Origin: Oscillospiraceae bacterium
GTDB taxonomy: Bacteria > Bacillota > Clostridia > Oscillospirales > Ruminococcaceae
NCBI GenBank assembly: GCA_900768125.1
Contig: CAAGBS010000024.1
Coordinates: 8,650-72,649, forward strand
Length of the DNA: 64,000 bases
Reading direction: 5' to 3'
Shown here: positions 39,337 through 62,550 of the stretch, piece by piece
Layout: each line of letters starts with the position of its first letter
How positions within the stretch are numbered: the first letter of the stretch is position 1
Notes under the pieces: generated by a model
Database searches by the model: none
Seen by the model: only the letters and a program-made list of their open reading frames with translations
What the model was told of the DNA's origin: nothing
Translations under genes and position numbers: made by a program

Positions 39337-39371
39337 ATAATACCCGCAGCCGTGTGACTGCGGGTATTTTG
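39337..39371. terminator. Bidirectional terminator
   Basis: AATACCCGCAG...CTGCGGGTATT with A/T flanks. Confidence 0.75.
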
Positions 39372-39373
39372 TG

Positions 39374-41162: not shown

Positions 41163-41411
41163 TCAGTGAACGCTCTGTTTACATCGGGAACTAATCGCAT
41201 AGAATCTCAGCCCGTCTCCGGAAAAACTCAGGTCAAGCCCCTTTTCGGAGAAGTAATCCTCCAGAAAGCTGCGAAGCTCCGCGGTGTTTGATGTGATGGA
41301 AAAATTCTGCCCGCCGCAGGAGCCGTGGTAGTGCAGTTCAACGTCAAACTGCTCCGCGACCTGCTTTTTCAGCCGGGACATTTCGGTAAGATTTATCGTT
41401 CTTGTAGCCAT
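41163..41411 (-). CDS. Small protein with HxxCGGQ motif (RDAC-family-like)
   Basis: LHYHGSCGGQNF; RBS GGAGG; 9 nt after the HD gene. Confidence 0.65.
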   Translation of the reverse strand: MATRTINLTEMSRLKKQVAEQFDVELHYHGSCGGQNFSITSNTAELRSFLEDYFSEKGLDLSFSGDGLRFYAISSRCKQSVH

Positions 41412-41420
41412 ATTACCTCC

Positions 41421-41996
41421 TTATACAAATTTGTTATATTCGTCCTCGCAGCTTCTCATTGCAAGTATCGTGTCGGATATCAGTTCGTCAAGGGACACAC
41501 CCATCAGTTCCGCGCCGCGCTCTATCACCTCGCGGGAGCAGCCCGCCGCAAAATTCGGGGACTTGTATTTCTTCTTCACCGATTTCAGTTCCATATCCTG
41601 CACCGACTTTGACGGTCTCATCAGCGCAGCCGCTCCGATAAGTCCGGTGAGTTCGTCCACAGCGTACAGCACCTTTTCCATCTGGTGCTCCGGCCGGATA
41701 TCCACAGTGAGCTTCCAGCCGTGGCTTGCAGTCGCGTGGATCATCCGCTCGTCAACGCCGCGTCCGCGCATTATTTCCTGCTCCTTTATGCAGTGCTGCT
41801 CCGGGTACATCTCAAAATCGAGGTCGTGGAGAAGCCCCACTATCCCCCAGAAGTCAGCCTCGTCGGAATAACCCAGCTTGTCCGCATACCAGCGCATTAC
41901 GCCCTCCACAGTCACGGCGTGCTTCAGATGGAACGTATCCTTGTTGTATTCGTTGAGAAGCGCCCAGGCTTCATCTCGCGTCATTGCAGCTCCCAT
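41421..41996 (-). CDS. HD-domain (HDIG-like) hydrolase
   Basis: KHAVTVE, GLLHDLD, ASHG, AVDELTG. Confidence 0.88.
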   Translation of the reverse strand: MGAAMTRDEAWALLNEYNKDTFHLKHAVTVEGVMRWYADKLGYSDEADFWGIVGLLHDLDFEMYPEQHCIKEQEIMRGRGVDERMIHATASHGWKLTVDIRPEHQMEKVLYAVDELTGLIGAAALMRPSKSVQDMELKSVKKKYKSPNFAAGCSREVIERGAELMGVSLDELISDTILAMRSCEDEYNKFV

Positions 41997-42024
41997 TAGA
42001 TTTCTCCTTTCTATCCAGACAAAA

Positions 42025-42168
42025 CCTATAGATTCTATATGATATGATACAACATCATGCTTGATTTGTCAATAGCTTTTGTAAAAAATTCCGGATTTCA
42101 TCATTTCATATAAAAACAGCGTTGACAAAAGCGGGTCATTATGCTATAATACATATTGAATTAGTAGG
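42025..42168. promoter_or_regulatory. Divergent SigA promoters, each followed by a CMTAT-N7-RTAKG box
   Basis: Minus TTGACA-17-TATCAT (42072-42044) with box 42025-42041; plus TTGACA-17-TATAAT (42122-42150) with box 42152-42168. Confidence 0.75.
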
Positions 42169-42202
42169 CAAATATCATACACATAAAGAGTGGGGACGGG
42201 AA

Positions 42203-43321
42203 ATGGAACAGCTTACATGCGTGAGCATTAATTATAAGAAGTGCGGGGAATCGGCGCGCGGCAGGTTCGCATTCGGCGAGGAGACCCGAAGCGGCTTCGT
42301 GCAGGCGCACGGCGAAATAAGCCCGGTGCTGCTGTGCACCTGCAGCCGTACCGAACTGTACGCCCTTTGCGGAGTAAACGACGGGCTGAAACTGCTGGCA
42401 GAACTTTCCGGGGTCAGCGCTGCGGAGGTCGAGGGCTGTGCCATGCTGTACAGTGGGGAGGGCGCGGTGCGGCACCTGTTCCGCGTAGCGTGCGGCGTGG
42501 ATTCAATGGTGGTCGGCGAGGACGAGATACTCGGTCAGCTGCGGACTGCATATGCATTCTCGGCAGAGCGCGTTCAGCTTTCTCACCATGTCAACATGAT
42601 ATTCCAGAGCGCAGTCGCCACGGCGAAGCGCATAAAGACCGAGACCGCCATCTCGAAGACTTCCGTTTCCCACGCTACCCTTGCCGCAAAGCTGGCGGCA
42701 CATTCCGCGCCGGAGGTCAGCGTGCTGCTGATAGGCGCAAGCGGAAAGACCGGCACCAGCCTGCTGAAAAACCTGCTTTCCTATAAGAACGTGACCGTCA
42801 GGGCTACCATGCGCTCCCACAGCGGACAGACGATGCTCCTGCCCGAAAGCCCGGCGCTGACCATAGTTCCCTACGAGCGGCGCTACAGCTGCATACCGGA
42901 GTGCAGCTGCGTTATCTCCGCGACCTCCAGCCCGCACACGGTGCTCACCGCCGAAAAACTACGTGACTGCTGCGCCGGAGAAAAGCTGCTGATAGACCTC
43001 GCCGTCCCCCGTGACATCGACCCGGAGGCGGCTGAAATCCCCGGCGTTACGCTGTGCAGCGTAGACTATTTCAGCGGTCTCGCCGAAGACAACAACCTCC
43101 GCAAGCAGGACAGCGTTGAACAGGCGAAGCAGATGATAGAGGAAGACATAGGCGAACTCCGCAAGTCGCTTGTCCTGCACGAAAAACTGCCGCAGATCCG
43201 CCATAGCGAAGCGCTTTCCGACCTCACCGCCGAGGAGCTTTTATTCAGGCTGAAAAAGAAGCTTTCAGCGGAAGCGTTCGGCGAAGTTGTGGATTCGATA
43301 CTGAACATTGCAAAGGAGTGA
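42203..43321 (+). CDS. hemA: Glutamyl-tRNA reductase
   Basis: CTCSRTELY, HLFRVACGVDSMVVGEDEILGQ, ISATSSPH, IDLAVPRDID. Confidence 0.93.
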   Translation: MEQLTCVSINYKKCGESARGRFAFGEETRSGFVQAHGEISPVLLCTCSRTELYALCGVNDGLKLLAELSGVSAAEVEGCAMLYSGEGAVRHLFRVACGVDSMVVGEDEILGQLRTAYAFSAERVQLSHHVNMIFQSAVATAKRIKTETAISKTSVSHATLAAKLAAHSAPEVSVLLIGASGKTGTSLLKNLLSYKNVTVRATMRSHSGQTMLLPESPALTIVPYERRYSCIPECSCVISATSSPHTVLTAEKLRDCCAGEKLLIDLAVPRDIDPEAAEIPGVTLCSVDYFSGLAEDNNLRKQDSVEQAKQMIEEDIGELRKSLVLHEKLPQIRHSEALSDLTAEELLFRLKKKLSAEAFGEVVDSILNIAKE

Positions 43322-43325
43322 AGCT

Positions 43326-43946
43326 GTGCCGTACTTTCCGTTTTTCATCGACATCTCGGGTAAGCGATGTCTTATCGCGGGCGGCGGCAGGATAGCCCTC
43401 CACAAGATAAAAAAGCTGCTCCCGTTTTCGCCGGAGATACATGTAGTTTCGCCCGAAATATGCGGCGAAATATCCGGTATCCCGGGACTGCATATCGAGC
43501 CGCGCGGATTCCTCCCCCGCGACCTTGACGGCGCGTTTTTCGTAATAGCCGCCACCGACCGTCCGGAAATAAACTCCGAGATTTCCCGGCTGTGCCGCGA
43601 ACGGAATATCCTCTGCAACGCCGTAGACAGCCCCGCAGACTGCTCGTTTTACTTCCCGGCGCTTGCCCAGCGCGGGGACGTCACAGTCGGAGTCTCCACC
43701 TCAGGGAAAAGCCCGCTCATAGCCGCCGAAATACGCCGGAAAGCCGAGAAACTCCTCACCCCGGAACTTGTGGAGATATGCGCGCTGATGGGCGAAATAC
43801 GTCCGGCGGTGCGGGAGCGGTTCCCGCTGGAAAAACAGCGCGCCGAAGTAATGTCCGCCGCACTGAAATACTGCTTGTCGCGCGGCGAAGCGCCCGGCTA
43901 TGCGGAACTTCTCAATTTCATCAACGGACTGGAGCTGAAAATATGA
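43326..43946 (+). CDS. Precorrin-2 dehydrogenase / sirohydrochlorin ferrochelatase (CysG N-terminal/SirC type)
   Basis: YFPFFID, AGGGRIA, VIAATD, NAVD, VSTSGKSP; GTG start after AAGGAG. Confidence 0.88.
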   Translation: MPYFPFFIDISGKRCLIAGGGRIALHKIKKLLPFSPEIHVVSPEICGEISGIPGLHIEPRGFLPRDLDGAFFVIAATDRPEINSEISRLCRERNILCNAVDSPADCSFYFPALAQRGDVTVGVSTSGKSPLIAAEIRRKAEKLLTPELVEICALMGEIRPAVRERFPLEKQRAEVMSAALKYCLSRGEAPGYAELLNFINGLELKI

Positions 43947-44803
43947 CCCTGAGAATAGGCACCCGCCAGAGCAGACTTGCGCTGGCGCAGACTGAAATGT
44001 TCGCGAATGCGCTCCGCGAAAAGCACCCGGAAATCCGCGTTGAAGTGGCGAGATTCACCACCAAGGGCGACAGGATAATCGACCGCCCGCTCGATAAAAT
44101 AGGCGGCAAGGGCGTTTTCGTCGAGGAGATAGAGCACGCCCTGAAAAGCGGCGAAATCGACATAGCAGTCCACAGCGCGAAGGACCTGCCGGTGCAGCTC
44201 GGCGCCGGTCTGGAGATTTCCGGAGTGCTCCCGCGCGGGGACTACCGCGACATGCTCGTCATGAGGAAAAATAACGAGTACTCCCCCGCCGACCGTTTCA
44301 CCGCCGGTACTGGCAGCCTGCGCCGCCGCATGAATCTCGCGAAGCTGTACCCTAATGCGGAATTTGCCGATATCCGCGGCAACGTGGACACCCGCCTGCG
44401 CAAGCTGTCGGACGGCGAATATGACGCGATAGTGCTCGCCGCCGCCGGAGTTGAGCGGCTGGATATAGACATGAGCAGCTTCACCGTGCGGAAATTCAGC
44501 TATGATGAGTTCCTGCCCGCGCCATGTCAGGCTATCATTGCTGCTGAGTGCGCCGCCGGAAGCGCCGCAGCCGATATCGTCCGAAGCGTTTCCGACGCTG
44601 ATACCATGCGGTGCTTCGAGGCGGAGCGCGGCGTTATCGAAGCCCTCGGCGCTGACTGCACCGTTCCGGTCGGGGCGTACAGCGAAATAATAGGCGGCGT
44701 TATGCGCCTTACGCTGTCAGACAAAACCGGAAAAAACGCGCACGGCGAATGCTCCCCGAAGAACTCCGCCGCGCTGATAAAGGAGCTGATATCAACTCTA
44801 TGA
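43943..44803 (+). CDS. hemC: Hydroxymethylbilane synthase
   Basis: IGTRQSRLALAQT, GGKGVF, AVHSAKDLP, RGNVDTRL. Confidence 0.95.
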   Translation: MTLRIGTRQSRLALAQTEMFANALREKHPEIRVEVARFTTKGDRIIDRPLDKIGGKGVFVEEIEHALKSGEIDIAVHSAKDLPVQLGAGLEISGVLPRGDYRDMLVMRKNNEYSPADRFTAGTGSLRRRMNLAKLYPNAEFADIRGNVDTRLRKLSDGEYDAIVLAAAGVERLDIDMSSFTVRKFSYDEFLPAPCQAIIAAECAAGSAAADIVRSVSDADTMRCFEAERGVIEALGADCTVPVGAYSEIIGGVMRLTLSDKTGKNAHGECSPKNSAALIKELISTL

Positions 44804-46272
44804 CAGGAAAGGTCATACTTACGGGCGCGGGCTGCGGCAGCTTCGACCTGATAACACTGCGCGGTCTGGAAGCGCTCAGGAACTGCGATACGGTCATTTA
44901 CGACAGCCTTGTCGATCCCCGGCTTCTTGATTTCGCGCCGGACGCCGAGAAAATATGCGTAGGAAAGCGCGCCGGGCAGCACTCCGCAAAGCAGGAGGAA
45001 ATAAACTCCCTGCTCGTTGAAAAAGCGCTCGCCGGACGGAACGTAGTCAGGCTAAAGGGCGGCGACCCGTTCGTTTTCGGGCGCGGCGGCGAAGAAATAC
45101 TGGAACTTCAGAAGCACGGAATACCGTTCGCTCTGATACCCGGCGTGACTTCCTCGGTGGCAGTCCCGGAACTTGCCGGGATACCGGTAACACATCGGAA
45201 ATGCGCGCGCAGCTTCCACGTTATAACCGGGCACACCGCCGACAGCTGCACCCCGGAAAACCTCGCGCAGTACGCTAAATTAACGGGCACGCTGGTGTTC
45301 CTGATGGGTCTTAATTCCCTGCCTGACATTGCGGGCGGGCTTATCGGCGGTGGAATGCCCTCCGATACCCCGGCGGCGGTGATATCCAACGGTGCAACGC
45401 GGCTTCAGCGCACTGTGCGCGGCACTGTTTCGGATATTGCGGATAAAGTCCGGGAAGCGGAGATACCCGCCCCGGCTGTCATCGTCATCGGCGAAACGGC
45501 TGGATTTGATTTTTCAGCGACCTGCCGCCCGCCGCTCGCCGGAAACAACATCGCGGTGATCTCCTCAGGCGAGACTGCAAAGCGGCTCTGCGAAATGCTT
45601 CACGCGCTCGGGGCGTATGCGTTCCGCTCAGGCGGGGTGGATATCGCGGAGTTATACGGCGACCCCATCGACCGGGCGTTTTCAGCGCTCGCGGACTACA
45701 CCCACATCGCGCTGACAAGCCCCAACGGTGCAAGGATATTCCTCAAAAAGCTGCGCGAAAAGCGCGTTGATGTACGCAGTCTCAGCGCCGTGAAATTCGC
45801 GGTCATCGGCAAAGGCACCGCCGCCGTGCTGGAAGACCACGGAGTATTCCCGGAGCTTATGCCGGAGGATTACAGCACGGAAGCGCTCGGAAAGCTTCTC
45901 GCACAGCTGCTCGGATATGATTCCAGGCTGCTGATACTGCGCTCGGAGGAAGGTTCCCCGGAGCTGAATAAGATCCTTGACGGCAGCGGCGTGAATTACG
46001 ACGACGTAAAGATATACCGTCCCATATACCGCCCGGCAAACGCGCTGGACTGCGACTTAGCGGCGTTCACCAGCGCCGGGGCTGTGCGGGGATTCTTCGC
46101 GAATGGCGGAAGCATTCCCGCCGGTGCGATACCCGCGGCTATCGGGAAAGTCACCGCCGCGGAACTTGCAAAACACGGCTTCACGGACTGCGTGATACCG
46201 CACGAAAGCACCGTTGACGGCATTGTACAAAGTATTTTGGAGGCAGTGAAATGCAGAGATTCAGAAGATTAA
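44800..46272 (+). CDS. cobA: Uroporphyrinogen-III C-methyltransferase / synthase fusion (CobA-HemD)
   Basis: GAGCG, RLKGGDPFVFGRGGEE, PGVTS; HemD part LTSPNG, FTSAGAV. Confidence 0.9.
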   Translation: MTGKVILTGAGCGSFDLITLRGLEALRNCDTVIYDSLVDPRLLDFAPDAEKICVGKRAGQHSAKQEEINSLLVEKALAGRNVVRLKGGDPFVFGRGGEEILELQKHGIPFALIPGVTSSVAVPELAGIPVTHRKCARSFHVITGHTADSCTPENLAQYAKLTGTLVFLMGLNSLPDIAGGLIGGGMPSDTPAAVISNGATRLQRTVRGTVSDIADKVREAEIPAPAVIVIGETAGFDFSATCRPPLAGNNIAVISSGETAKRLCEMLHALGAYAFRSGGVDIAELYGDPIDRAFSALADYTHIALTSPNGARIFLKKLREKRVDVRSLSAVKFAVIGKGTAAVLEDHGVFPELMPEDYSTEALGKLLAQLLGYDSRLLILRSEEGSPELNKILDGSGVNYDDVKIYRPIYRPANALDCDLAAFTSAGAVRGFFANGGSIPAGAIPAAIGKVTAAELAKHGFTDCVIPHESTVDGIVQSILEAVKCRDSED

Positions 46273-47222
46273 GATCCAGCGAAGCAATGCGGAGAATGGT
46301 CCGCGAGACCCGACTCGACCCGGCGGACTTCATCTACCCGATATTCGTTGCGGAGGGCGAAAACATAAAGAAGCCGGTGGACTCCATGCCTACAGTTTAC
46401 CAGTACTCCATCGACAGGCTGGAGGAGATTCTCCCGCAGATAGCCGGAAGCGGGATTTCCGGGCTGCTTATCTTCGGCATTCCCGCCCGCAAGGACGCCC
46501 GCGCCACCGAAGCCTACAACGACGAGGGAATTACACAGCGCGCTATACGCTACATCAAGGAGCATTATCCCGACCTCATTATCATTGCGGACGTATGCCT
46601 GTGCGAATACACCGACCACGGACACTGCGGACTTATCTGCGGCTGTAAAATACTGAATGACGAGACTCTCCCGCTGCTGAGCGCGATGGCGGTCAGCCTT
46701 GCGAAAGCCGGCGCGGATATAATAGCGCCCTCCGACATGATGGACGGCAGAGTAGCCGCTATACGCGAAGCGCTCGATGAAAACGGCTGCAAGGACGTTC
46801 CGATAATGTCCTACAGCGCGAAATTCGCTTCGGGGTACTATTCCCCGTTCAGGGACGCGGCGCAGTCCGCCCCCAGCTTCGGCGACCGAAAGACCTACCA
46901 GATGGACCCCGCCAACGGCAGGGAGGCTCTCCGCGAGATAGCGGACGATATCTCCGAGGGAGCGGATATGGTAATGGTGAAGCCCGCCCTTGCCTACCTG
47001 GACGTGCTCAAAGCCGCACGGGAGCGCTTCGACCTGCCGATAGCGGCATACAACGTCAGCGGTGAATTTTCCATGGTGAAAGCCGCCGCTCAGCTCGGGT
47101 GGATAGACGAGCGCCGGATAGTGCTGGAAAATCTGACTGCGATAAAACGCGCGGGAGCGGATATCATAATAACCTATCACGCGCTTGACGCCGCAGAATG
47201 GCTGAAGGAGGAACAGAGATGA
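46251..47222 (+). CDS. hemB: Porphobilinogen synthase
   Basis: DVCLCEYTDHGHCG, APSDMMDGR, MVKPA, AYNVSGE. Confidence 0.97.
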   Translation: MQRFRRLRSSEAMRRMVRETRLDPADFIYPIFVAEGENIKKPVDSMPTVYQYSIDRLEEILPQIAGSGISGLLIFGIPARKDARATEAYNDEGITQRAIRYIKEHYPDLIIIADVCLCEYTDHGHCGLICGCKILNDETLPLLSAMAVSLAKAGADIIAPSDMMDGRVAAIREALDENGCKDVPIMSYSAKFASGYYSPFRDAAQSAPSFGDRKTYQMDPANGREALREIADDISEGADMVMVKPALAYLDVLKAARERFDLPIAAYNVSGEFSMVKAAAQLGWIDERRIVLENLTAIKRAGADIIITYHALDAAEWLKEEQR

Positions 47223-48475
47223 ACACCGCAAATTCCGAGAAGCTGTACGAAAAAGCCTGCAATTTCATGCCGGGAGGAGTAAACAGCCCGGTGCGCGCCT
47301 GCCGCTCGGTGGGAGTTTCCCCGCTGTTTATAAAGCATGCGAAAGGGTCTAAGATCTACGATGAGGACGGCAATGAACTTATCGACTACATCTGCTCCTG
47401 GGGGCCGAATATCTTCGGACATGCAGTCCCGCAGATAACCGAAGCGGTAAAATCTGCGTGCGACAGCGGGCTTACATTCGGAGCCTGCCACAAGGGCGAA
47501 ATAGAACTCGCGGAGCTTATCAAAAAGCACTTTCCGACAATGGAACTGCTTCGGCTGGTGAACTCCGGCACCGAAGCGGTGATGAGCGCCATCAGAGCCG
47601 CCCGGGGATTCACCGGGCGCGACAAGATAATCAAGTTCGAGGGCTGCTATCACGGGCACTCAGACGGACTGCTCGCAAAGGCGGGCTCGGGATTGATGAC
47701 GCACTCTATCCCCTCCGGCGCGGGAGTTCCGGCGGGCTGCACCGCTGACACGCTGCTTGCGCGGTATAACGATGAAGGCTCGGTGGAAAGGCTTTTCGCG
47801 GAGTTCGGCGATAAAATAGGCGCGCTCATTGTGGAGCCGTGCGCTGCGAATATGGGCGTAGTTCCCCCGAAGTCGGGATTCCTGCAGTTCCTGAGGGATA
47901 TCACAAAGAAGCACGGCGCGCTGCTGATATTCGACGAAGTCATAACCGGATTCCGGCTGTCGGACGGCGGCGCTCAGAAATACTACGGCGTTGACCCCGA
48001 CCTCACCACCCTCGGAAAGATAGTCGGCGGCGGAATGCCGCTTGCAGTCTACGGCGGAAAGCGCGAAATAATGGAATGCGTAGCGCCGCTGGGTTCAGTC
48101 TATCAGGCGGGTACGCTGTCGGGAAATCCCTGCGCGGTTGCGGCGGGTATCGCGCAATTGAAGCTGATAGAAAGCACTCCCGACCTATACCAGCGCATTG
48201 ACAGCAGCGCGGAAAAGCTGCACTCCGCAATGCTTGAAGCGGGGCTGAACGCAAACCGCTGCGGCTCGCTGCTGACTGTATTCTTCACCGACATGCAGGT
48301 CACGGATTACGACACCGCGCGCGCCTGCGACACCGGAAGATTCGCGAAATACTGGCGGCATATGCTGAACTGCGGAATATATGCGGCGCCGTCCCAGTTC
48401 GAGGCTATGTTCGTATCCTACGCGCATTCCGACGAAGATATTGCGCGGACTGTTCAGGCGATAAAAACGCTGTGA
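47219..48475 (+). CDS. hemL: Glutamate-1-semialdehyde 2,1-aminomutase
   Basis: PGGVNSPVRA, NSGTEA, GCYHGH, GKIVGGG, QAGTLSGNP. Confidence 0.97.
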   Translation: MNTANSEKLYEKACNFMPGGVNSPVRACRSVGVSPLFIKHAKGSKIYDEDGNELIDYICSWGPNIFGHAVPQITEAVKSACDSGLTFGACHKGEIELAELIKKHFPTMELLRLVNSGTEAVMSAIRAARGFTGRDKIIKFEGCYHGHSDGLLAKAGSGLMTHSIPSGAGVPAGCTADTLLARYNDEGSVERLFAEFGDKIGALIVEPCAANMGVVPPKSGFLQFLRDITKKHGALLIFDEVITGFRLSDGGAQKYYGVDPDLTTLGKIVGGGMPLAVYGGKREIMECVAPLGSVYQAGTLSGNPCAVAAGIAQLKLIESTPDLYQRIDSSAEKLHSAMLEAGLNANRCGSLLTVFFTDMQVTDYDTARACDTGRFAKYWRHMLNCGIYAAPSQFEAMFVSYAHSDEDIARTVQAIKTL

Positions 48476-48482
48476 TAAAAAC

Positions 48483-48714
48483 GTGGGGGAGGGGCAATCA
48501 GGACGTTTGCCCGGACCGCCCAAAAGCTTGTCTCCCCCGGTGGGGGAGAGTGTCAAAGCGACGGCTTCGCCTTACGCACGAAGTTCCAGAGGGGCTAGTT
48601 TGGCGCAAAACCAAATTTAATGGTTAACAATGAATCTTCGTGTTGCGCCAAACTAACGAAAGAACGCATGGACGCGCCGCAGCATAGGGCGGGAGGGGCA
48701 AGCCCCTCCCCTAC
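48483..48714. repeat. Composite REP/REPIN-like region
   Basis: GTAG-GGGAGGGGCTTGCCCCTCCC on the minus strand (48714-48691); TGTCTCCCCCGGTGGGGGAG shared with 8106-8125; IR 48596-48608 / 48643-48655. Confidence 0.7.
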
Positions 48715-48720
48715 ATAATG

Positions 48721-48758
48721 AAAAACTCCGGTCATTTGTCGTGACCGGAGTTTGTTTT
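48721..48758. terminator. Bidirectional terminator
   Basis: AAACTCCGGTCA...TGACCGGAGTTT. Confidence 0.75.
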
Positions 48759-50248: not shown

Positions 50249-50264
50249 TGTAATTTCCTCCTTA

Positions 50265-51308: not shown

Positions 51309-51325
51309 TGTAGTATCTCCTTTTT

Positions 51326-52105
51326 TTACTTAACGCCGAAATGCTTTAAGAATTTCTTTCCGGCGAGCTGTAGCAGTCTGTCCGCAGCGAACCCGATGAC
51401 CGCGAGGGTGACGATGCCGGCGAACGCCCAACTTGTTTTGTAGTATAGCTTAGAGCTGTTGATGAGGTAGCCCAGACCGTCGCTGCCGACCAGCATTTCC
51501 GCCGCGATGACGCATATGAAAGCAGAGCTGAGTCCCAGCCTTACGCCGGTGTAGATATTCGATACCGCCGACGGAACGACAACGGTGAAGAATGTACGCG
51601 CTTTCTTAGCGCCCATGCAGGAAGCCGCCTCCACAAGCGAACGGTCGGTCGTTGCAACGCCCGCGATGGTATTCACTAATACCGGGAAGAACGAAGCGTA
51701 GAATATCAGCGCGACCTTGGATTCCTCGCCGACGCCGAACCACATCAGGAACAGAGTAGTCAGTGCGATCGCCGGAACAAACCGGAAGAAGCTGAGTATC
51801 GGCTCTACCAGCCAGCGCACCGGGCGGAAGTTTCCGACCAGCAGTCCCATCGGAACTGCGAAGACGATCGCAAGCAGCCAGCCCTTGATAACTCTGCCGA
51901 AACTTGCCGCGATATCCGCCCACAGCGTGCCGTTCTGTATCAGCTGAACAAGGCTGTTCAGCGTTTCAAGCGGGCTGGGGAGGAAGTACTCGTCATAGCC
52001 CAGGGAGCCAAGCCCCCATATCGCAAGTATGATTATCCAGGAGATTACTCCGCTGCGGAGTATCTTCTGCCAAACGCCTGAGGGCGCTTTGTTATTGTTG
52101 TCCAT
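51326..52105 (-). CDS. ABC permease (SsuC/TauC-like)
   Basis: LPSP, ASFGRV, WFGVGE, LVEAASCMGA, AEML...GLGY. Confidence 0.9.
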   Translation of the reverse strand: MDNNNKAPSGVWQKILRSGVISWIIILAIWGLGSLGYDEYFLPSPLETLNSLVQLIQNGTLWADIAASFGRVIKGWLLAIVFAVPMGLLVGNFRPVRWLVEPILSFFRFVPAIALTTLFLMWFGVGEESKVALIFYASFFPVLVNTIAGVATTDRSLVEAASCMGAKKARTFFTVVVPSAVSNIYTGVRLGLSSAFICVIAAEMLVGSDGLGYLINSSKLYYKTSWAFAGIVTLAVIGFAADRLLQLAGKKFLKHFGVK

Positions 52106-52117
52106 TTCGCGTCCTCC

Positions 52118-53176
52118 TTAGATGTAGTAAACGTCGGATACGTCCAGCGCCTTGTTTACGATTATGGAAGTGCTGTCGTTATCGACTGTGTAAAGCTTCT
52201 TTATGAATATCTTCACATTATCGCCTTTTTTGAGCCTTGGCGAACTCAGCGGGTAACGTCCGGTGACTGAGATATCCCCGATGGAAGCCCGAACCTCGAA
52301 AGCGTTTCCGCGGAACGAAACGTCCTGCACAACGGCGCTTTCCATTGCGGATTCGAACTGGTGATAACCGCTGTCCTCGAATTTGTTTATCTCGATGAAC
52401 TCCGGACGGATAAGCGCCTTTCCGCCTCCCGTGAAGCCTTTCAGCCTGCCGAAGTCCTCTATCATCACCGACTGCCCGATGAACTGGGCAACGAATGCGG
52501 TAGCGGGTTCAAGATAGATCTCGGACGGGCTTCCGACCTGCTCTACCCTGCCGTTGTTGGTGATGACTATTTCGTCCGCCACCTCGATAGCTTCGTCCTG
52601 GTCGTGGGTGACGAATATGCTTGTTATCCCGATCTTGTCGATCGTCTCGCGGAGCCAGGTGCGAAGCTCCTTGCGGACTTTCGCGTCTATGGCTGCGAAC
52701 GGCTCGTCCAGCAGGAGCAGTTCCGGCTGCGGTGCGAGCGCCCTCGCGAGTGCTATCCTCTGCCGCTGACCGCCGCTCAGCTGGTCGGGGTAGCGCTTCC
52801 CTACGTCCGGGAGACCTACCAGTTCCAACAGTTCATTGACGCGTTCGTTGATGAACTTCTTGTCCTTTTTCTGGACTTTCAGCCCGTAGGCGATGTTTGA
52901 ACTTACCGTCATGAACGGGAAAAGCGCGTAATTCTGGAACACGAAACCTATCCCACGCTCGCTTGCCGGGACTGTATTCACGTTCCTGCCGTTTATCAGG
53001 ATATCGCCGCTGTCCTGCTTTTCAAGACCCGCCAGCATGCGGAGTATCGTTGTCTTTCCGCTGCCGCTGGGTCCCAGCAGTCCGATCAGCTTTCCTTTTT
53101 CCAGCCCGAAGCTTACGTTGTCAGAAGCCTTGAAGCTGCCGAAGCTTTTGTTGATGTTTTTCAGTTCTATGTACAT
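52118..53176 (-). CDS. cysA: Sulfate/thiosulfate-type ABC ATP-binding protein (CysA-like)
   Basis: [51 protein letters not shown]. Confidence 0.8.
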   Translation of the reverse strand: MYIELKNINKSFGSFKASDNVSFGLEKGKLIGLLGPSGSGKTTILRMLAGLEKQDSGDILINGRNVNTVPASERGIGFVFQNYALFPFMTVSSNIAYGLKVQKKDKKFINERVNELLELVGLPDVGKRYPDQLSGGQRQRIALARALAPQPELLLLDEPFAAIDAKVRKELRTWLRETIDKIGITSIFVTHDQDEAIEVADEIVITNNGRVEQVGSPSEIYLEPATAFVAQFIGQSVMIEDFGRLKGFTGGGKALIRPEFIEINKFEDSGYHQFESAMESAVVQDVSFRGNAFEVRASIGDISVTGRYPLSSPRLKKGDNVKIFIKKLYTVDNDSTSIIVNKALDVSDVYYI

Positions 53177-53215
53177 CTGTGTATCTCCTTATAGATTTGA
53201 CCCGTTGTTATGGTA

Positions 53216-53269
53216 TCAGGTACACATTCGACATCGGAAGAAGCGGCAGATGAGATAGTAGTTTTTCAT
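53216..53269 (-). CDS. Putative Cys-rich leader peptide MKNYYLICRFFRCRMCT
   Basis: 17 codons, GAGGT RBS 6 nt upstream, 3 Cys; lies between the promoter and cysA. Confidence 0.65.
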   Translation of the reverse strand: MKNYYLICRFFRCRMCT

Positions 53270-53295
53270 AAAATTACCTCTGTATTCATACTAAG

Positions 53296-53492
53296 TCTAT
53301 CAACTTGATATGTTTTGTTTATTATAACCTCATCGACTGCATTTGTCAACAGGTTTTTTTCGATTTGTAGCATAATACACAATTCACGGCGATACTACGG
53401 AAAAATTTAGCTATATTCAACATTTTGCAAAATCCCGCTTGACAAAAGCCCCGAAAAGTGGTATCATTAGTAAAACCTATCAATCGGATAGG
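53296..53492. promoter_or_regulatory. Divergent SigA promoters with operator-like boxes
   Basis: Minus TTGACA-17-TATAAT (53349-53321) with box 53296-53312; plus TTGACA-17-TATCAT (53439-53467) with perfect CCTAT-N7-ATAGG at 53476-53492. Confidence 0.8.
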
Positions 53493-53526
53493 AAACATAG
53501 ACATTCACCACAGGAGGATCTGAAAT

Positions 53527-53841
53527 ATGTTTACTGAACTCACAAATCAGAACTACAGCGAAATTTTTTCAACCGAAAAACCGCTGGTTGTTGAATTTTA
53601 TTCCCCGACCTGCGCACACTGCAAGCGCACCGAAGCAGGTCTCGCCGAGGCAGCCGAGGAACAGGGCGAAAACGCCGTGATCGCGAAGTGCGACATCACA
53701 GCTGAACCCGCTCTGGCTCAGCGGTATGATGTCACCCAGCTTCCCACGCTGCTCTTTATAAAGAACGGCGATATCCGCGAGAAGCTGACCGGCTTCACCC
53801 ACAAGCTCATCATCGCTGAGAACATCAAGAAGCTGAAATGA
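53527..53841 (+). CDS. Thioredoxin family protein (CAHC)
   Basis: VVEFYSPTCAHCK, cis-Pro LPTLLF. Confidence 0.88.
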   Translation: MFTELTNQNYSEIFSTEKPLVVEFYSPTCAHCKRTEAGLAEAAEEQGENAVIAKCDITAEPALAQRYDVTQLPTLLFIKNGDIREKLTGFTHKLIIAENIKKLK

Positions 53842-53885
53842 TCCAGCCGGACTGGCGGCGGGATAACCTCCCGCCGGGTGTTCAG

Positions 53886-54785
53886 TCAGCGCTGTGAGAG
53901 ATATTTTTCCGCAGAATTGACCGCGTTCGCGCCGTCCGCAGCGGCTGTTATCACCTGCCGCAGCGGAGTTGTGCGGACGTCCCCCGCCGCGAAAATTCCC
54001 GGCGCTGAGGTCACGCAGTCCTCGCCAGCGACAACGTAGCCGGACTTATCCAGTTCGCACACGCCTTTCAGCGGCGCGGTTCCCGGAACGCTTCCGATCG
54101 CCGCGAAGATACCGTCAACATCAAGGTGCTTTTCAGCGCCGCCCTGGGTGTAATTGATGCCGTCAGCCTTGGCTTCCCCGGTAACCTCCGTCAGCACCGC
54201 GCCCAGCACGGGAACGATGTTAGCGGTCTCGCCGACCTGCTTCTGCAGGGTCTTGTTGGCGCGGAACTCATCGCGGCGGTGGACGAGGTACACGGTCTTC
54301 GCGAGCTTTGAGAGGTACAGCGCGTCTCCGAGCGCGGTGTCTCCCCCGCCGATGACTGCAACGGTCTTTTCCTTATAAAAGAAGCCGTCGCACACCGCGC
54401 AGTAGGAAATGCGCTCCTTGTCGCCGCCGGGAACTCCGAGCTTACGGTGGGACGCTCCTGCGGCGTAGATAACCGCTTTCGCCGTCCGGGAAGTCCCGTC
54501 TGCGAAGTTCACGCGCCAGTTCTCGCCGTCCCTTTCGATGGCGGCGACTTCCGCGTCCAGAAACTCGGCGCCCAGCGCTTCCGCATGGCTGCGGAACTTC
54601 TCGCCGAGGTCGTAGCCGCTCACGCCGTAAAGTCCCGGGTAGTTGTCCACACGCTCGGTGACAGCTATCTGACCGGTGCTCATATAGTCCTTTTCTATCA
54701 CTGCCAGCGAAAGCTGTGCACGCTTGCCGTAGATCGCAGCGGACAGCCCCGCAGGACCGCTTCCTATTATCAGTATATCGTACAT
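53886..54785 (-). CDS. trxB: Thioredoxin reductase-like FAD oxidoreductase
   Basis: IGSGPAGLSAA, SYCAVCDG, VIGGGDTA, GIFAAGDV. Confidence 0.88.
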   Translation of the reverse strand: MYDILIIGSGPAGLSAAIYGKRAQLSLAVIEKDYMSTGQIAVTERVDNYPGLYGVSGYDLGEKFRSHAEALGAEFLDAEVAAIERDGENWRVNFADGTSRTAKAVIYAAGASHRKLGVPGGDKERISYCAVCDGFFYKEKTVAVIGGGDTALGDALYLSKLAKTVYLVHRRDEFRANKTLQKQVGETANIVPVLGAVLTEVTGEAKADGINYTQGGAEKHLDVDGIFAAIGSVPGTAPLKGVCELDKSGYVVAGEDCVTSAPGIFAAGDVRTTPLRQVITAAADGANAVNSAEKYLSQR

Positions 54786-54807
54786 TTTGTCCTCCTCGTT
54801 TACAAAA

Positions 54808-54946
54808 CCTATCTGATTACTTGTTATTTTATATTATTATTCCCCGTTTGTCAAGAGATATAATTTATTTATAACCGGCAATAGAAATTCTGAATAGGTA
54901 AATAAATACAAAACCTATTGACATGATATGCTTTGCGGTGTATAAT
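54808..54946. promoter_or_regulatory. Divergent SigA promoters with operator-like boxes
   Basis: Minus TTGACA-17-TAAAAT (54854-54826) with half-box 54808-54824; plus TTGACA-17-TATAAT (54918-54946) overlapped by box 54914-54930. Confidence 0.75.
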
Positions 54947-54979
54947 AGGGAACATAAACAAACGGTATGGAGTGATAAT

Positions 54980-56206
54980 ATGAATTTCAACACAAAGCTG
55001 CTTCACGGCGGCTTCAGGCAGGACGCTGCGACCGGCTCCACGCTGGCACCGATATATCAGGTCAGCGCGTTCGCGCATGAGAGCGCGGAAAAGCTGGAAG
55101 CGGTATTCAACAGCCGCGCGCCCGGATTTGCGTACACGCGTATCAGCAACCCGACAGTAGCAAGCTTTGAGAACCGCATGAACGCCTTGGAAAAGGGGCT
55201 TGGCGCTGTAGCCTGTTCCTCGGGAATGGCGGCGGTCACTCTTTCGATGCTGAATATTCTTGAAGCAGGAGATGAGGTGATAGCCGGCGCTGGGCTGTTC
55301 GGCGGAACGATAGACCTCTTTGTCGACCTGAAAGCATTCGGCATAACAACGCGATTTGCAGAGCATGTCACTGCCGAGGACATTCTCCCGCTGATAAACG
55401 AGAAGACCAGGGCGGTGTTCGCAGAGCTTATCGGCAATCCGGGACTGGAGATAGTCGATCTGAAAGCGGTCTCGGTGCTGTGCCGCGAGCACGGTATACC
55501 GCTTATAATAGACAGCACCACCGCAACTCCGTACCTGATAAATCCGTTCGAATTTGGCGCGGATATCGTGGTGCACTCCACTTCGAAATACATAAACGGC
55601 GGCGGAAACTCGATAAGCGGCGTGATAATCGACAGCGGAAAATTCCCCTGGGATTTTGAAAAGCACACCGCGCTTGCGGAATACAAAAAGATGGGCAAAC
55701 TCGCGTACCTCGCGAAGCTGCGCGGCGGGCTGTGGCGAAATGTAGGCGCGTGTCTGGCTCCGATGAACGCATTCATGAACTCGGTCGGAATGGAGACCCT
55801 CGGTCTTCGAATGGAGCGCTGCTGCGAAAATGCGCTGGCGCTGGCGGAGTTCTTCCGTGACACTGACGGCGTGGAGCCTAACTACCCGGCGCTCCCGGAC
55901 AACACGTATCACGCGCTGTGCGAAAGCCAGCTGAAAGGTAAAGGCGGCGCGATACTTACCATAAGGGCTGGCAGCAAGGAGCGCGCATTCAGGCTGATAA
56001 ACGGACTGAAACTCGCCACCAACGCAACGAACATAGGCGATGTCCGCACGCTGGTGATACACCCCTCCAGCACGATTTACGCCCACAGCAGCGAAAAGCA
56101 GAAGCAGACAGCCGGCGTTTTTGAAGACACTATAAGAATAAGCGTCGGAATTGAAGATAAAGAAGACCTCATCTCCGATTTCAGACAGGCGATAGAGGCG
56201 CTGTAA
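54980..56206 (+). CDS. O-acetylhomoserine sulfhydrylase-like PLP enzyme (MetY/MetZ family)
   Basis: YTRISNPT, SSGMAA, VHSTSKYI (PLP Lys), NIGDVRTLVIHP, RISVGIE. Confidence 0.88.
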   Translation: MNFNTKLLHGGFRQDAATGSTLAPIYQVSAFAHESAEKLEAVFNSRAPGFAYTRISNPTVASFENRMNALEKGLGAVACSSGMAAVTLSMLNILEAGDEVIAGAGLFGGTIDLFVDLKAFGITTRFAEHVTAEDILPLINEKTRAVFAELIGNPGLEIVDLKAVSVLCREHGIPLIIDSTTATPYLINPFEFGADIVVHSTSKYINGGGNSISGVIIDSGKFPWDFEKHTALAEYKKMGKLAYLAKLRGGLWRNVGACLAPMNAFMNSVGMETLGLRMERCCENALALAEFFRDTDGVEPNYPALPDNTYHALCESQLKGKGGAILTIRAGSKERAFRLINGLKLATNATNIGDVRTLVIHPSSTIYAHSSEKQKQTAGVFEDTIRISVGIEDKEDLISDFRQAIEAL

Positions 56207-56217
56207 GGAGAATCAGT

Positions 56218-57081
56218 ATGGCAACAGATTATGCTACCCTCAAAAAAGGCGGATTTATGCGCCAGAAGCAGAAGAACAACTTTTCCATCCGCCTGCGCGT
56301 GGTAGGCGGAAACCTCACCGCGAAGCAGCTTGCCGCTATCGCGGAGGTATCCGATAAATTCGGCGACGGCCACGTCCACCTGACCTCCCGCCAGAGCGTG
56401 GAAATACCGTTCATCAAGCTGGACGACATCGAGGAAGTCAAGGCGGCGCTCGCGCAGGGCGACGTTGAACCGGGCGTATGCGGACCCAGAGTGCGCACCA
56501 TCACCGCCTGTCAGGGCGAAGCGATATGCCCCAGCGGCTGTATCGACACCTACGCCCTCGCAAAGGAACTGGACGACCGCTATTTCGCACGGGAGCTTCC
56601 GCACAAGTTCAAGTTCGGCATAACCGGCTGCCAGAACAACTGCCTGAAAGCTGAGGAAAACGACCTCGGTATCAAGGGCGGCATTCAGGTAAAGTGGAAG
56701 GAAGACGCGTGCATAGGCTGCGGAGTCTGCGAGAAGGCATGCCGCCAGAATGCGATAAGCATAACAGACGGAAAGGTCAGCGTTGACTACGACAAGTGCA
56801 ACTTCTGCGGACGCTGCTTCAAGGCTTGTCCCACTGAAGCATGGGATACCGTGCACGGCTATATAGTTTCATTCGGAGGACTTTTCGGCAACAGCATAAA
56901 CAAGGGAGAAGCGATAATCCCGTTCATCGAGGACAAGGAAAAGCTGATGAAGATATGCGACGCGGCTATAGTGTTCTTCGAGCAGAACGCAAAGTCCGGC
57001 GAGCGGTTCAAGTTCACCATCGACCGCGTAGGCAGGGAGAAATTCGAACAGGTTATCAAGGAGGCTTACAGCAATGGCTGA
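56218..57081 (+). CDS. Siroheme sulfite reductase-like protein with ferredoxin domain
   Basis: TSRQSVEI, ACQGEAIC and GCQNNC siroheme/Fe-S ligands, CIGCGVC and CNFCGRC ferredoxin motifs. Confidence 0.85.
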   Translation: MATDYATLKKGGFMRQKQKNNFSIRLRVVGGNLTAKQLAAIAEVSDKFGDGHVHLTSRQSVEIPFIKLDDIEEVKAALAQGDVEPGVCGPRVRTITACQGEAICPSGCIDTYALAKELDDRYFARELPHKFKFGITGCQNNCLKAEENDLGIKGGIQVKWKEDACIGCGVCEKACRQNAISITDGKVSVDYDKCNFCGRCFKACPTEAWDTVHGYIVSFGGLFGNSINKGEAIIPFIEDKEKLMKICDAAIVFFEQNAKSGERFKFTIDRVGREKFEQVIKEAYSNG

Positions 57082-57319
57082 TTACAATATCGACGATACC
57101 GTAGACATAACCGACGTAGTGTGCCCCACGACTTTCGTAAAGGCAAAGGTGGCGCTGGAGGAGCTTGGCGAGGGACAGATACTCTCCATCAGAATGAACG
57201 ACGGCGAGCCTGTGCAGAACGTTCCCCGCAGCATCAAGGAAGAGGGTCACAAGATACTGAAACTCATCAACAACGAGGACGGCACCTACGACCTCATCGT
57301 GGAAAAGGTGGGCGACTAA
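57074..57319 (+). CDS. TusA/SirA family sulfur carrier
   Basis: DITDVVCPTTFVKAK, 81 aa. Confidence 0.88.
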   Translation: MADYNIDDTVDITDVVCPTTFVKAKVALEELGEGQILSIRMNDGEPVQNVPRSIKEEGHKILKLINNEDGTYDLIVEKVGD

Positions 57320-57624
57320 TGGCTGTAAAATCAACGAACGAAAGTTTCCCGCAGGACATCGCGCAGGGACTGGTGCTGGCGGATTTCTACTCCGATTCCT
57401 GCATTCCCTGCAAGAGAATGTCCCCGGTACTGGCGGAGCTTGAGAAGGAAAATCCCGAAGTTAAGCTGGTGAAGCTCAACATAAATTTCGGCGCTGAGAC
57501 AGCCGCAAAATATGAGGTCGCCTCAGTTCCCACGCTGGTTTTCTTCAGGGACGGCAGCGAGGTGCAGAGGATAAGCGGCGCAGTCAGGAAAGCGCAGATA
57601 GAAGAAATATTAAAGACGATATAA
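57319..57624 (+). CDS. Thioredoxin family protein (CIPC)
   Basis: LADFYSDSCIPCKRM, SVPTL; TAATG overlap with the previous gene. Confidence 0.88.
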   Translation: MAVKSTNESFPQDIAQGLVLADFYSDSCIPCKRMSPVLAELEKENPEVKLVKLNINFGAETAAKYEVASVPTLVFFRDGSEVQRISGAVRKAQIEEILKTI

Positions 57625-57635
57625 GGAGTACAACT

Positions 57636-57842
57636 ATGACTATCACAGTAACAGGCGTAAAGAAAGAAGCAGCAGACGGACTGACCCTCGCACAGCTGGT
57701 CGTTGACGAAAGGGTGGAGACCCCCGAGTATGTCACCGCAAGCGTTAACGATGATTTCGTATCCTCCAGCAGCTTTGAAGACACAGTCCTCAAGGACGGA
57801 GACAACGTAGAGTTCATCTATTTCATGGGAGGCGGTCAGTAA
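57636..57842 (+). CDS. ThiS/HcyS-like sulfur carrier with capped C-terminus (GGG-Q)
   Basis: 68-aa ubiquitin-like pattern, LKDGDNVEFIYFMGGGQ. Confidence 0.9.
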   Translation: MTITVTGVKKEAADGLTLAQLVVDERVETPEYVTASVNDDFVSSSSFEDTVLKDGDNVEFIYFMGGGQ

Positions 57843-58654
57843 TGGCATTCACAAACGAACAGCTCGAGCGCTACTCCCGTCACATCATTCTGAAAGAAGT
57901 CGGCGCGAAGGGGCAGAAGAAGCTGCTCAACGCCAGGGTGCTGATAATCGGCGCGGGCGGTCTGGGCGCTCCTGCGGCGCTTTACCTCGCGGCTGCGGGC
58001 GTAGGCACCATCGGTATCGCCGACGCTGACGAGGTGGACCTCTCCAACCTCCAGCGCCAGGTCATTCACACCACCGCCGATGTCGGCAAGGCTAAGGTGC
58101 AGTCCGCAAAGGAGACGATGGAAGCCATCAACCCTGATGTCAAGGTCAACACCTACCGCACGTTCATCGACAGCGAAAATATCCTTGATATCATCAAGGA
58201 TTACGATTTCGTCATCGACGGCACCGACAACTTCCCGGCAAAGTTCCTGATAAACGACGCGTGCGTAATGGCTAAGAAGCCGTTCTCACACGCGGGTATA
58301 ATCCGCTTCAAGGGTCAGCTGATGACCTACGTTCCCGGACAGGGTCCCTGCTACCGCTGCGTATTCAAGAACCCGCCGCCCAAGGACGCAGTTCCCACCT
58401 GCAAGCAGGCGGGAGTTATCGGCGCGATGGGCGGCGTTATCGGCAGTTTGCAGGCTATGGAAGCTATAAAGTACATTCTCGGCGTCGGCGACCTGCTGAC
58501 CGGATATCTGCTGACCTACGACGCGCTGAAGATGGAGTTCCGCAAGATAAAGCTGCCGTCCGACACCAGCAAATGCCCGATATGCGGCGAACACCCGACA
58601 ATTACAAAGCTCATCGACTATGAGCAGGCTGAATGCGATGGAGTTCATTTATGA
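57842..58654 (+). CDS. ThiF/MoeB/HcyF-family adenylyltransferase
   Basis: RYSRH, GAGGLG, SNLQRQ, DGTDNF, CYRC, CPIC. Confidence 0.93.
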   Translation: MAFTNEQLERYSRHIILKEVGAKGQKKLLNARVLIIGAGGLGAPAALYLAAAGVGTIGIADADEVDLSNLQRQVIHTTADVGKAKVQSAKETMEAINPDVKVNTYRTFIDSENILDIIKDYDFVIDGTDNFPAKFLINDACVMAKKPFSHAGIIRFKGQLMTYVPGQGPCYRCVFKNPPPKDAVPTCKQAGVIGAMGGVIGSLQAMEAIKYILGVGDLLTGYLLTYDALKMEFRKIKLPSDTSKCPICGEHPTITKLIDYEQAECDGVHL

Positions 58655-59061
58655 TAAAGCTATCAAGGTCTGATTACGAAAAGATACTCGCCCACGCTGA
58701 AAAGGAGCTTCCGGACGAAGCCTGCGGTCTTATCGCGGGAACTATAGAGGGCGGCGACAAGCTGATAAAGAAAGTGTATCTGCTCACTAACACCGACCAT
58801 TCCAACGAACATTTCAGCATGGACCCAAAAGAGCAGCTTGCGGCTATAAAGGACATGCGCGCGAACGGATTAGTCCCGCTCGGCAACTGGCACAGCCACC
58901 CGGAGTCGCCGTCAAGACCGTCCGAGGAAGACAAGCGGCTTGCCTATGACAGCAAGGCAAGCTACATGATACTTTCGCTGATGGACAGGAGCGCCCCGGT
59001 GCTCAATTCTTTCCATATCTCCGGAGCGGACGCGGAAAAGGAACAGCTTGAAATTATCTGA
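58651..59061 (+). CDS. JAMM/MPN (M67) metallopeptidase, HcyD-like
   Basis: PDEACG, WHSHPESPSRPSEED. Confidence 0.92.
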   Translation: MIKLSRSDYEKILAHAEKELPDEACGLIAGTIEGGDKLIKKVYLLTNTDHSNEHFSMDPKEQLAAIKDMRANGLVPLGNWHSHPESPSRPSEEDKRLAYDSKASYMILSLMDRSAPVLNSFHISGADAEKEQLEII

Positions 59062-59189: not shown

Positions 59190-59258
59190 AATACCGTATA
59201 GAATAATGAAATTTGAGTGCGCCGCCAAGGTACGGCGTATGAAAGGAATGTCCAGAAT

Positions 59259-60887: not shown

Positions 60888-60900
60888 CGGGGGTGCATGC

Positions 60901-61392: not shown

Positions 61393-62550
<1,158 letters not shown>

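Follow-up and report, generated by a model that had tools for sequence, protein, structure and literature searches.

A cytoplasmic ASST-fold enzyme as a candidate sulfite source in a clostridial sulfur assimilation cluster

The genome of a Ruminococcus-like gut bacterium (Oscillospiraceae; assembly GCA_900768125.1, contig CAAGBS010000024.1) carries a sulfur assimilation cluster at positions 41163–59061 of the 64,000-nucleotide stretch analysed here (the window), and within this cluster an ABC importer operon ends in the gene for a 496-residue enzyme with the fold of arylsulfate sulfotransferases (ASSTs). We propose that this cytoplasmic protein (48758–50248, minus strand) is a sulfate-ester reductase. 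The sulfuryl group of an imported sulfate ester would be held as His-SO3, passed to the enzyme's own Cys484 as Cys484-S-SO3, and released as sulfite by the thioredoxin Trx1, the thioredoxin reductase TrxB and NADPH, in place of sulfate activation; weighing the comparative evidence, we consider this route probable, with ample room for doubt. An earlier note on this DNA had the ASST supplying sulfite instead of ATP sulfurylase and adenosine 5′-phosphosulfate (APS) reductase. That idea gains from a replacement pattern within the genus, from co-occurrence with sulfite reductase (Sir) and from a shared operator, but the first acceptor of the sulfuryl group is probably another than the one suggested, and strict exclusivity between ASST and activation genes did not survive across taxa.

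Fold, catalytic residues and tail cysteine

Assignment of the enzyme to the ASST family is based on PF05935 and PF14269, which match at 84 and 58 bits, both above cut-off, and on a structure model (pLDDT, the predicted local confidence score, 88.5) whose top 11 Foldseek matches are all ASSTs, the best being Streptomyces Cpz4 (9KF4/9KF6; E 9e-17), with E. coli AssT at E 3e-10. The ESM Atlas likewise returned ASST clusters only; the name 'thioredoxin' on some members is automatic, and no thioredoxin domain is present. Because PDB sequence searches with the enzyme reached Cpz4 alone, the E. coli residues were reached by way of a classic Desulfosporosinus ASST aligned to H356/N358, R374 and H436 of AssT; the H436N entry confirms the last of these. 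In this two-step alignment H210/N212, R240 and H279 correspond to H356/N358, R374 and H436, and H210, N212, R240 and H279 are invariant in 40/40 aligned sequences; H114, in a QHHD motif outside the hhalign range, corresponds to E. coli H252 by motif alone. All four motifs are whole in 79 of 83 genomic ASST copies. Catalytic roles for these residues are given in the accessible portions of PMC13426309 and bioRxiv 10.64898/2026.10.08.757629, the former also describing a ping-pong mechanism through sulfo-His.

The features of exported, E. coli-type ASSTs are missing from the protein, which has neither a signal peptide nor an N-terminal beta-sandwich domain. Its N-terminus is about 90 residues shorter than that of the classic ASST used for the mapping, Met1-Gly2 is invariant among the 40 aligned sequences, and the start MGYPSIFPTG lies directly 3′ of an AGGAGG ribosome site with no hydrophobic stretch at the N-terminus, in agreement with the earlier note. 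PF01507 (PAPS_reduct) has no match in the protein. Judged by fold and residues, then, the enzyme is an ASST, and neither an exported ASST of the E. coli type nor a CysH. It shares the beta-propeller and the H356/N358/R374/H436 set with AssT of E. coli CFT073 (PDB 3ELQ/3ETS/4P04) and Cpz4, at 13–18% identity; unlike them, it lacks both the signal peptide and the N-terminal accessory domain, carries an invariant tail cysteine, and is encoded among reducing (Trx/TrxB) and assimilatory neighbours rather than beside a disulfide-forming system. Known ASSTs pass the sulfuryl group to hydroxyl acceptors, whereas we propose here a thiol acceptor that allows reduction.

That thiol is likely to be Cys484 (codon at 48797–48799) of the enzyme's own tail, and not TusA, since it is the sole invariant cysteine among the 40 aligned sequences (the query and 39 of 120 matches). 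It stands in an FC tail behind an acidic linker that varies in length by tens of residues. A cysteine falls within the last 45 residues in 114 of the 120 matches, the six misses appearing truncated or chimeric, and a tail cysteine is present in 81 of the 83 genomic copies. The two exceptions belong to tandem pairs (L071:8510-11293 and L083:728-3571) in which one paralogue keeps all histidines and has no tail, while the other keeps the tail cysteine and has lost H210, which suggests that the catalytic histidine and tail-cysteine functions may be separable between chains. No tail cysteine is present in the five relatives that stand closest to the enzyme among those with signal peptides (43–51% identity); under a wider filter, a cysteine follows the domain in 11 of the 45 proteins whose N-termini are hydrophobic (by eye not an FC tail) and in 4 of 8 without such termini.

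A single conserved cysteine on a C-terminal tail is a feature of CysH, where the tail motif is ECG instead of FC. In the parts of PMC1175818 that were available, this cysteine of CysH forms a thiosulfonate that thioredoxin resolves. By analogy, the ASST probably works like CysH: the chemistry we propose, a thiosulfonate on a C-terminal cysteine and thioredoxin-released sulfite, is that of CysH and plant APS reductase, and thioredoxin-fused forms exist in both cases. The enzyme differs from these reductases in its unrelated fold without PF01507, in a donor that would be an imported ester, in an extra histidine relay, and in the lack of an ATP sulfurylase.

The candidate reductant is Trx1, encoded at 53527–53841 (plus strand; PF00085). 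Its CxHC motif is found in 35/35 copies, and no Trx1 occurs among the 22 loci (L103-L124) that were retrieved for their CysD or Sir. It faces trxB (53886–54785, minus strand; CAVC; TIGR01292 at 321 bits, slightly under the cut-off of 343), the only clear TrxB gene in the source assembly. One of two ASST-thioredoxin fusions, P0124, has the tail cysteine. In sulfate reducers and their relatives (L062, L066, L067, L069, L070, L077, L078, L080, L082 and L091), the ASST gene is instead flanked by genes for glutaredoxin-domain, GcvH-like and lipoamide-dehydrogenase-like proteins, DASS or TRAP transporters, and Crp-type proteins.

Replacement of sulfate activation within and beyond the genus

Neither cysDN or sat nor cysH or aprAB lies in the window, as the earlier note had observed, and searches of the whole source assembly (2.6 Mb, 84.77% complete) likewise gave no convincing match to activation genes. 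Profile searches of this assembly found no Sat, no CysC and no CysN above cut-off. With proteins of relatives as queries, tblastn found no match to CysD, CysH, Sbp or CysW in the source genome; tblastn with relatives' AprA and AprB was used in place of the AprB profile search, which was uninformative (its controls were silent), and the AprA queries reached just the nadB locus, at 22% identity. The sole PF01507 match in the assembly, a 539-residue protein, was rejected as a CysH: it is DndC-like, a label that comes from its dndB- and dndD-like neighbours. The source genome holds DndB/DndC/DndD-like DNA phosphorothioation genes (L001, G000:C38:36213-39761). No PF00884 sulfatase was found in it.

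In a sample of 101 genomes of the genus, the source genome included, sulfite reductase was matched at 1e-40 in 27, of which 22 carry orthologues (at least 84% identity) and five, with long distant forms, were set aside. ASST is present in 16 of the 101, every one among the 22 with a Sir orthologue. CysD is found in five, four of them among the same 22 and none also with ASST; in the fifth the core is interrupted by a contig end (L122). Two Sir-orthologue genomes, 80–82% complete, have neither. The CysD loci of the genus contain the same metY-sir-tusA-trx-thiS-thiF-jab core, with sbp-cysTWA-aprAB-cysDN taking the place of the ASST module, and the source Sir is 83–84% identical to the Sir of these aprAB-cysDN clusters. 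Lachnospiraceae-type clusters also combine the core with sbp-cysTWA-aprAB-cysDN. In the genus's remaining 15 ASST genomes Sat had no match; seven of these, at 94–100% completeness, have neither CysD nor Sat. A comparable ThiS/JAB/E1/SirA operon is row 4e of PMC1779556, where the available text lists a sulfate ABC transporter, an ATP sulfurylase, as well as a reductase of 3′-phosphoadenosine 5′-phosphosulfate (PAPS). ThiS, JAB, E1, SirA/TusA, sulfite reductase and O-acetylhomoserine sulfhydrylase are all present in our cluster, whereas the transporter, the ATP sulfurylase and the PAPS reductase are replaced by the ASST module.

For a broader view, the best 80 loci from a profile scan with 579 genome matches were taken with up to 10 kb of flanking sequence on each. 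They span Lachnospiraceae, Collinsella, Bifidobacterium, Treponema, Paenibacillus and sulfate reducers, and gene order around ASST differs among them. A TauC/SsuC-like permease occurs in 53/80, Trx1 in 29/80, Sir in 20/80, and ThiF with JAB in 16/80; cysD, cysN, cysH and sbp occur in 0/80. The closest named relatives of the enzyme (88–96% identity) are labelled Oscillospiraceae or Ruminococcus, with one label mismatched, and R. bicirculans WP_337671161.1 falls in the sequence cluster of the top ASST match. Fifty of the 80 loci, from 49 genomes, formed the subset tested for other genes, comprising the closest plus some distant fermenters. An NIR_SIR protein is encoded in 48/49 of these genomes (47 at 1e-15), compared with 63/300 in a class-wide draw whose make-up is unlike that of the ASST set; ASST itself was found in 1/300 of the drawn genomes, too few for an unbiased test of exclusivity. 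Where Sir lies within 10 kb of ASST, CysD is missing in 17/21 genomes, and where the two are unlinked it is present in 18/28 and missing in 10/28, a comparison whose significance is inflated by kinship among the genomes. About 10 kb separate the ASST-Sir cluster of Treponema primitia from a cysDN-cysH set. Counted among scored candidates at E ≤ 1e-30, the family as a whole has more than 6,000 clusters.

Two further observations concern these loci. In L055-L059 and L079 (e.g. L055:6374-12725) and in L109, ASST adjoins a NifH-like gene, two nitrogenase component-1-like genes, radical-SAM proteins and SsuA-class importers, an arrangement that we take to be possibly a sulfur-scavenging island of the methylthio-alkane-reductase-like kind. 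Clostridia-like clusters also occur under the record titles E. coli, Parabacteroides and Bacteroidaceae (L017, L028, L029), titles that probably mismatch the bins.

Proposed route and alternatives

We picture the unit as a sulfur-starvation response that would bypass sulfate activation and draw the sulfur of homocysteine from an organic sulfate ester taken up by the cell. An SsuA/TauA-class ABC system would import R-O-SO3-, and the ASST, to judge from residues homologous to those of the E. coli enzyme, would move the sulfuryl group onto His279 and free R-OH. Cys484 of the tail, on the same chain or on an adjacent subunit, would accept the group as Cys-S-SO3-, as CysH chemistry would lead one to expect, and Trx1, recharged by TrxB and NADPH, would free sulfite. 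Siroheme Sir, TusA, ThiS/ThiF/JAB and MetY would then pass sulfur through the ThiS thiocarboxylate into homocysteine, a sequence established for this type of cluster; the biochemistry of the HcyS/HcyF/HcyD/MetY/Sir pathway has reportedly been worked out in Wolinella. The saving would be the ATP and GTP spent by CysDN, while import and ThiF still consume ATP.

The importer offers some guidance to the substrate. Its ATPase (52118–53176, minus strand; 352 residues) passes the CysA model (TIGR00968, 357 bits against a cut-off of 343), shares 57–62% identity with the CysA proteins of sulfate clusters of the aprAB type and, in a quick tree with long branches, groups with these proteins, apart from the 257-residue SsuB-type ATPases of other ASST loci. 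Beyond the ATPase the features of Sbp-CysTWA are absent, with no Sbp or CysW in the source genome and a single TauC/SsuC-like permease (51326–52105, minus strand; best models SaoP, TauC and SsuC, each below cut-off). The lipoprotein substrate-binding protein (50265–51308, minus strand), of the NMT1/SsuA/TauA class, has an invariant lipobox Cys23, a weak PF09084 match, weak profile matches to TauA and SsuA, 47 bits to TIGR01728 (cut-off 163.5) and weak PDB matches at E ~1e-4. Alkyl-sulfatase genes lie within the importer-ASST operon, between importer genes, in two loci (L033:13990-17293 and L045:2583-4586), whose genomes also carry CysD and AprA, and a tannase/feruloyl esterase domain is fused to ASST in 5 of 11 longer relatives (P0271-P0275, of about 1000 residues). 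The operonic alkyl sulfatases and the fusions are hints towards sulfate esters, not proof. A DUF1254/DUF1214 gene also lies inside the L033 operon, as does a gene of similar size inside the importer-ASST operon of L044 (L044:5473-6786).

Several findings weigh against this route. Among the 49 genomes of the tested ASST subset, CysD is above cut-off in 18, with divergent CysD-like matches in four more, and AprA is present in 15; Sat occurs in 2 of 30 tested. The mutual exclusivity of ASST and activation genes, which the earlier note suggested as a test, therefore holds in the genus, where no genome has both, and is rejected in its strict form across taxa. Since CysD and AprA coexist with ASST in so many taxa, we view the ASST module as an alternative entry for sulfite that sometimes replaces activation. 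Within the genus the 16 ASST genomes are related, and the replacement may stem from a single event; the source genome is just 85% complete; and the proposed partners Trx1 and Sir are missing from most of the best 80 loci. The binding protein is below the cut-off of every characterised family, the tail was modelled at a pLDDT of 60–69, and the second ASST-thioredoxin fusion, P0125, has no tail cysteine and degenerate histidine motifs, each fusion being a single-sequence cluster. Energetics add a further difficulty. The sulfate/bisulfite couple is at −516 mV and alkyl sulfate hydrolysis yields about −9 kcal/mol, from which we estimate the alkyl sulfate/sulfite couple at about −320 mV, merely level with NADPH, so that either the pull of Sir or an aryl donor would be needed; aryl esters should be energetically easier than alkyl esters.

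The same His/Cys/thioredoxin relay could act on a donor other than an O-ester, such as thiosulfate, S-sulfocysteine, another S-sulfonate or an N-sulfamate. We think this unlikely, while granting that the replacement pattern, the tail cysteine, Trx1 and the operator would fit it equally well. It is also in keeping with a source genome in which no YeeE was found and the one rhodanese-domain gene lies outside the cluster, and with the pairing in sulfate reducers of ASST with DASS/TRAP transporters and a Grx/GcvH/Lpd-like relay. Sbp/CysTW already transport thiosulfate, yet here an SsuA/TauA-class binder with one permease stands in their place; S-sulfocysteine can be reduced by thioredoxins with no ASST involved; and the alkyl sulfatases in the importer operon and the tannase/feruloyl esterase fusions speak for esters.

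A somewhat poorer prospect is that the importer carries sulfite or a sulfonate that reaches Sir by other means, the ASST serving as an ordinary transferase or as a passenger for detoxification, with a regulatory or structural cysteine. The resemblance of binder and permease to SsuA/TauA and SsuC/TauC would suit such a role, as would the many genomes with both ASST and activation genes and the taurine-type importer and class III aminotransferase near ASST in Bifidobacterium callitrichos. The cluster has no desulfonating enzyme, however, and the single glycyl-radical enzyme matched in the source genome is PFL with a CC motif. Nor would a bystander be expected to end the importer operon and stay with the importer across differing gene orders, as the permease counts indicate, or to carry a tail cysteine that tracks cytoplasmic location.

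That the ASST is a hydrolase, with the released sulfate activated by genes missing from the assembly, seems to us very improbable. The incomplete source assembly leaves space for such genes, and PF01507 matches, weak or in long proteins, occur in 7 of the genus's 15 further ASST genomes (inspected in part). These are partial or long proteins, with a best E of 5e-27 (794 residues), unlike the CysH-sized Bacillales matches at 1e-53 or better; the seven near-complete genus genomes have no CysD or Sat, and hydrolysis would leave Cys484 and Trx1 unexplained. Direct transfer from His279 to TusA or a thioredoxin with Cys484 off the path, the version put forward in the earlier note, is scarcely credible even in a cluster with TusA and two thioredoxins: Cys484 is the invariant cysteine of the ASST alignment, and TusA and Trx2, which occur in both ASST and CysDN/AprAB clusters and so belong to the downstream module, are rejected as ASST-specific acceptors.

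We lean slightly towards describing this ASST subfamily as a hitherto unrecognised class of enzymes, organosulfate:thioredoxin oxidoreductases (sulfite-forming) that combine sulfo-His chemistry with a CysH-like swinging cysteine, by which fermenters would assimilate host and diet sulfate conjugates without ATP sulfurylase, while sulfate-reducing relatives with a lipoyl/glutaredoxin-like relay may feed sulfite to respiration. Sulfate esters are otherwise scavenged by sulfatases (Pseudomonas AtsA with AtsRBC; SdsA1) and sulfonates by SsuABCDE and TauABCD. The present unit resembles these systems in its SsuA/TauA-class ABC importer, sulfur-starvation control and delivery to assimilation, but sulfatases yield sulfate that needs ATP for activation, and SsuD and TauD require O2 and cleave C-S bonds. 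To our knowledge, every route from sulfate ester to sulfide either hydrolyses the ester and re-activates the sulfate with ATP or depends on oxygen. By direct anaerobic reduction the ester would enter sulfur assimilation, and supply the sulfur of methionine, in a new way that retains its group-transfer energy.

No link between ASST and sulfite formation was found in literature listings and abstracts, a search outside which most of the subscription literature and supplements lie. A 22-clade ASST phylogeny is cited as in preparation; the word 'sulfite' had no match in the ASST papers searched in full text, PMC10932419 among them. The accessible text of a 2026 review calls the physiological role of ASSTs poorly understood (PMC13426309), and our reading gives one large family a testable role. 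If it is true, desulfation in gut commensals such as Ruminococcus bicirculans, Blautia hansenii and Eubacterium ramulus has been overlooked by sulfatase-based annotation, this activity bears on phenolic and drug sulfate conjugates, and genomes scored as incapable of using oxidized sulfur need rescoring.

Regulation and layout of the region

The ASST module and the assimilatory genes appear to share an operator, AAAACCTAT-N7-ATAKG, which occurs three times in the window and not once in 100 shuffles, with the pattern derived from the same sites. A matrix built from 11 sites of ASST-free clusters has among its top genome-wide sites those preceding hemA, metY/trxB and trx1, the importer-ASST operon and cysK, as well as genes for a MetN-like importer and an IscS-like protein and an rrf2 gene. 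Sites scoring at least 11 precede 28 of 64 scorable ASST units and 37 of 283 control units, with automatic unit calling that is noisy and 16 loci with too little flank to be scored. CymR controls comparable genes in clostridia according to the accessible part of PMC3828012, in which the consensus is shown only as a figure. Motif and targets (cysK, metN-like, iscS-like, rrf2) fit a CymR/IscR (Rrf2) regulon, and from these we infer a regulator of the Rrf2/CymR type.

Pfam and NCBIfam profile searches and translations confirmed the inventory of the earlier note, namely the siroheme genes, Sir, TusA, ThiS/ThiF/JAMM, MetY, the thioredoxins, TrxB, the importer and the ASST; it had overlooked the tail cysteine, the operator, and the pairing of a CysA-like ATPase with SsuA/SsuC-like partners. 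By gene content the region is a thiocarboxylate-type cluster leading from sulfite to homocysteine, plus siroheme genes. It consists of four divergent or convergent units, each headed by a near-consensus sigma-70 promoter: hemA-hemL (plus strand), ATPase-permease-binder-ASST (minus), trx1 (plus) facing trxB (minus), and metY-sir-tusA-trx2-thiS-thiF-jab (plus).

The siroheme unit begins with hemA (glutamyl-tRNA reductase, 42203–43321; TIGR01035 above cut-off), followed by the cysG N-terminal domain (precorrin-2 dehydrogenase/chelatase, 43308–43946; TIGR01470 above cut-off), hemC (43943–44803; TIGR00212 above cut-off), a cobA-hemD fusion (44749–46272; TIGR01469 above cut-off, PF02602), hemB (46251–47222; NF006762 above cut-off) and hemL (47198–48475; TIGR00713 above cut-off), all on the plus strand. 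The hemA promoter is at 42122–42150 with a second operator site behind it, near 42147–42173. Because consensus promoters overlap the starts of longer open reading frames, which are open from 42122 and 54923, the probable start of hemA is 42203 and that of metY 54980. A bidirectional terminator-like hairpin at 48723–48753 marks the hemL/ASST boundary. In the importer-ASST operon, intergenic gaps measure 12–17 bp; its promoter (53349–53321, minus strand) matches the consensus at 12/12 positions, and an operator-like site lies at 53291–53317. The trx1 promoter (53439–53467, plus strand) is followed by an operator at 53472–53492.

The core unit, on the plus strand throughout, has an operator (54910–54930) overlapping the metY promoter (54918–54946). 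It encodes a MetY-like O-acetylhomoserine sulfhydrylase (54980–56206; TIGR01326 the best model, under cut-off), a small siroheme sulfite reductase with a ferredoxin insert (56218–57081; Cx5C and GCxNxC motifs; PF01077, PF03460, Fer4), TusA/SirA (57074–57319; CPT; PF01206), Trx2 (57319–57624; CIPC; PF00085), a ThiS-like sulfur carrier ending in GGGQ (57636–57842; TIGR01683 above cut-off), a ThiF/E1-like adenylyltransferase (57842–58654; PF00899) and a JAB/JAMM protease (58651–59061; PF14464; HxHP...S..D motif).

At the left edge, an RDAC-family small cysteine protein (41163–41411, minus strand; NF047998 above cut-off) adjoins the cluster in 3 of the best 80 loci, all close relatives, and an HD-like protein (41421–41996, minus strand; assigned by eye, no Pfam match at 0.05) is likewise present in 3. 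Their promoter (42072–42044, minus strand) directly abuts an operator at 42021–42041, and the two genes are probably co-regulated, not conserved parts of the module; a second RDAC-like gene of the source genome sits on contig C31. No riboswitch or other Rfam family reached the gathering score between 38000 and 64000 of the window. Farther left, at 36409–41024, lie two genes for ECF sigma factors, and behind each of them stands one that matches no family (putative anti-sigma factors); the right flank (59217–63983) contains ilvB-ilvH-ilvC on the plus strand and nadC/nadB on the minus strand.

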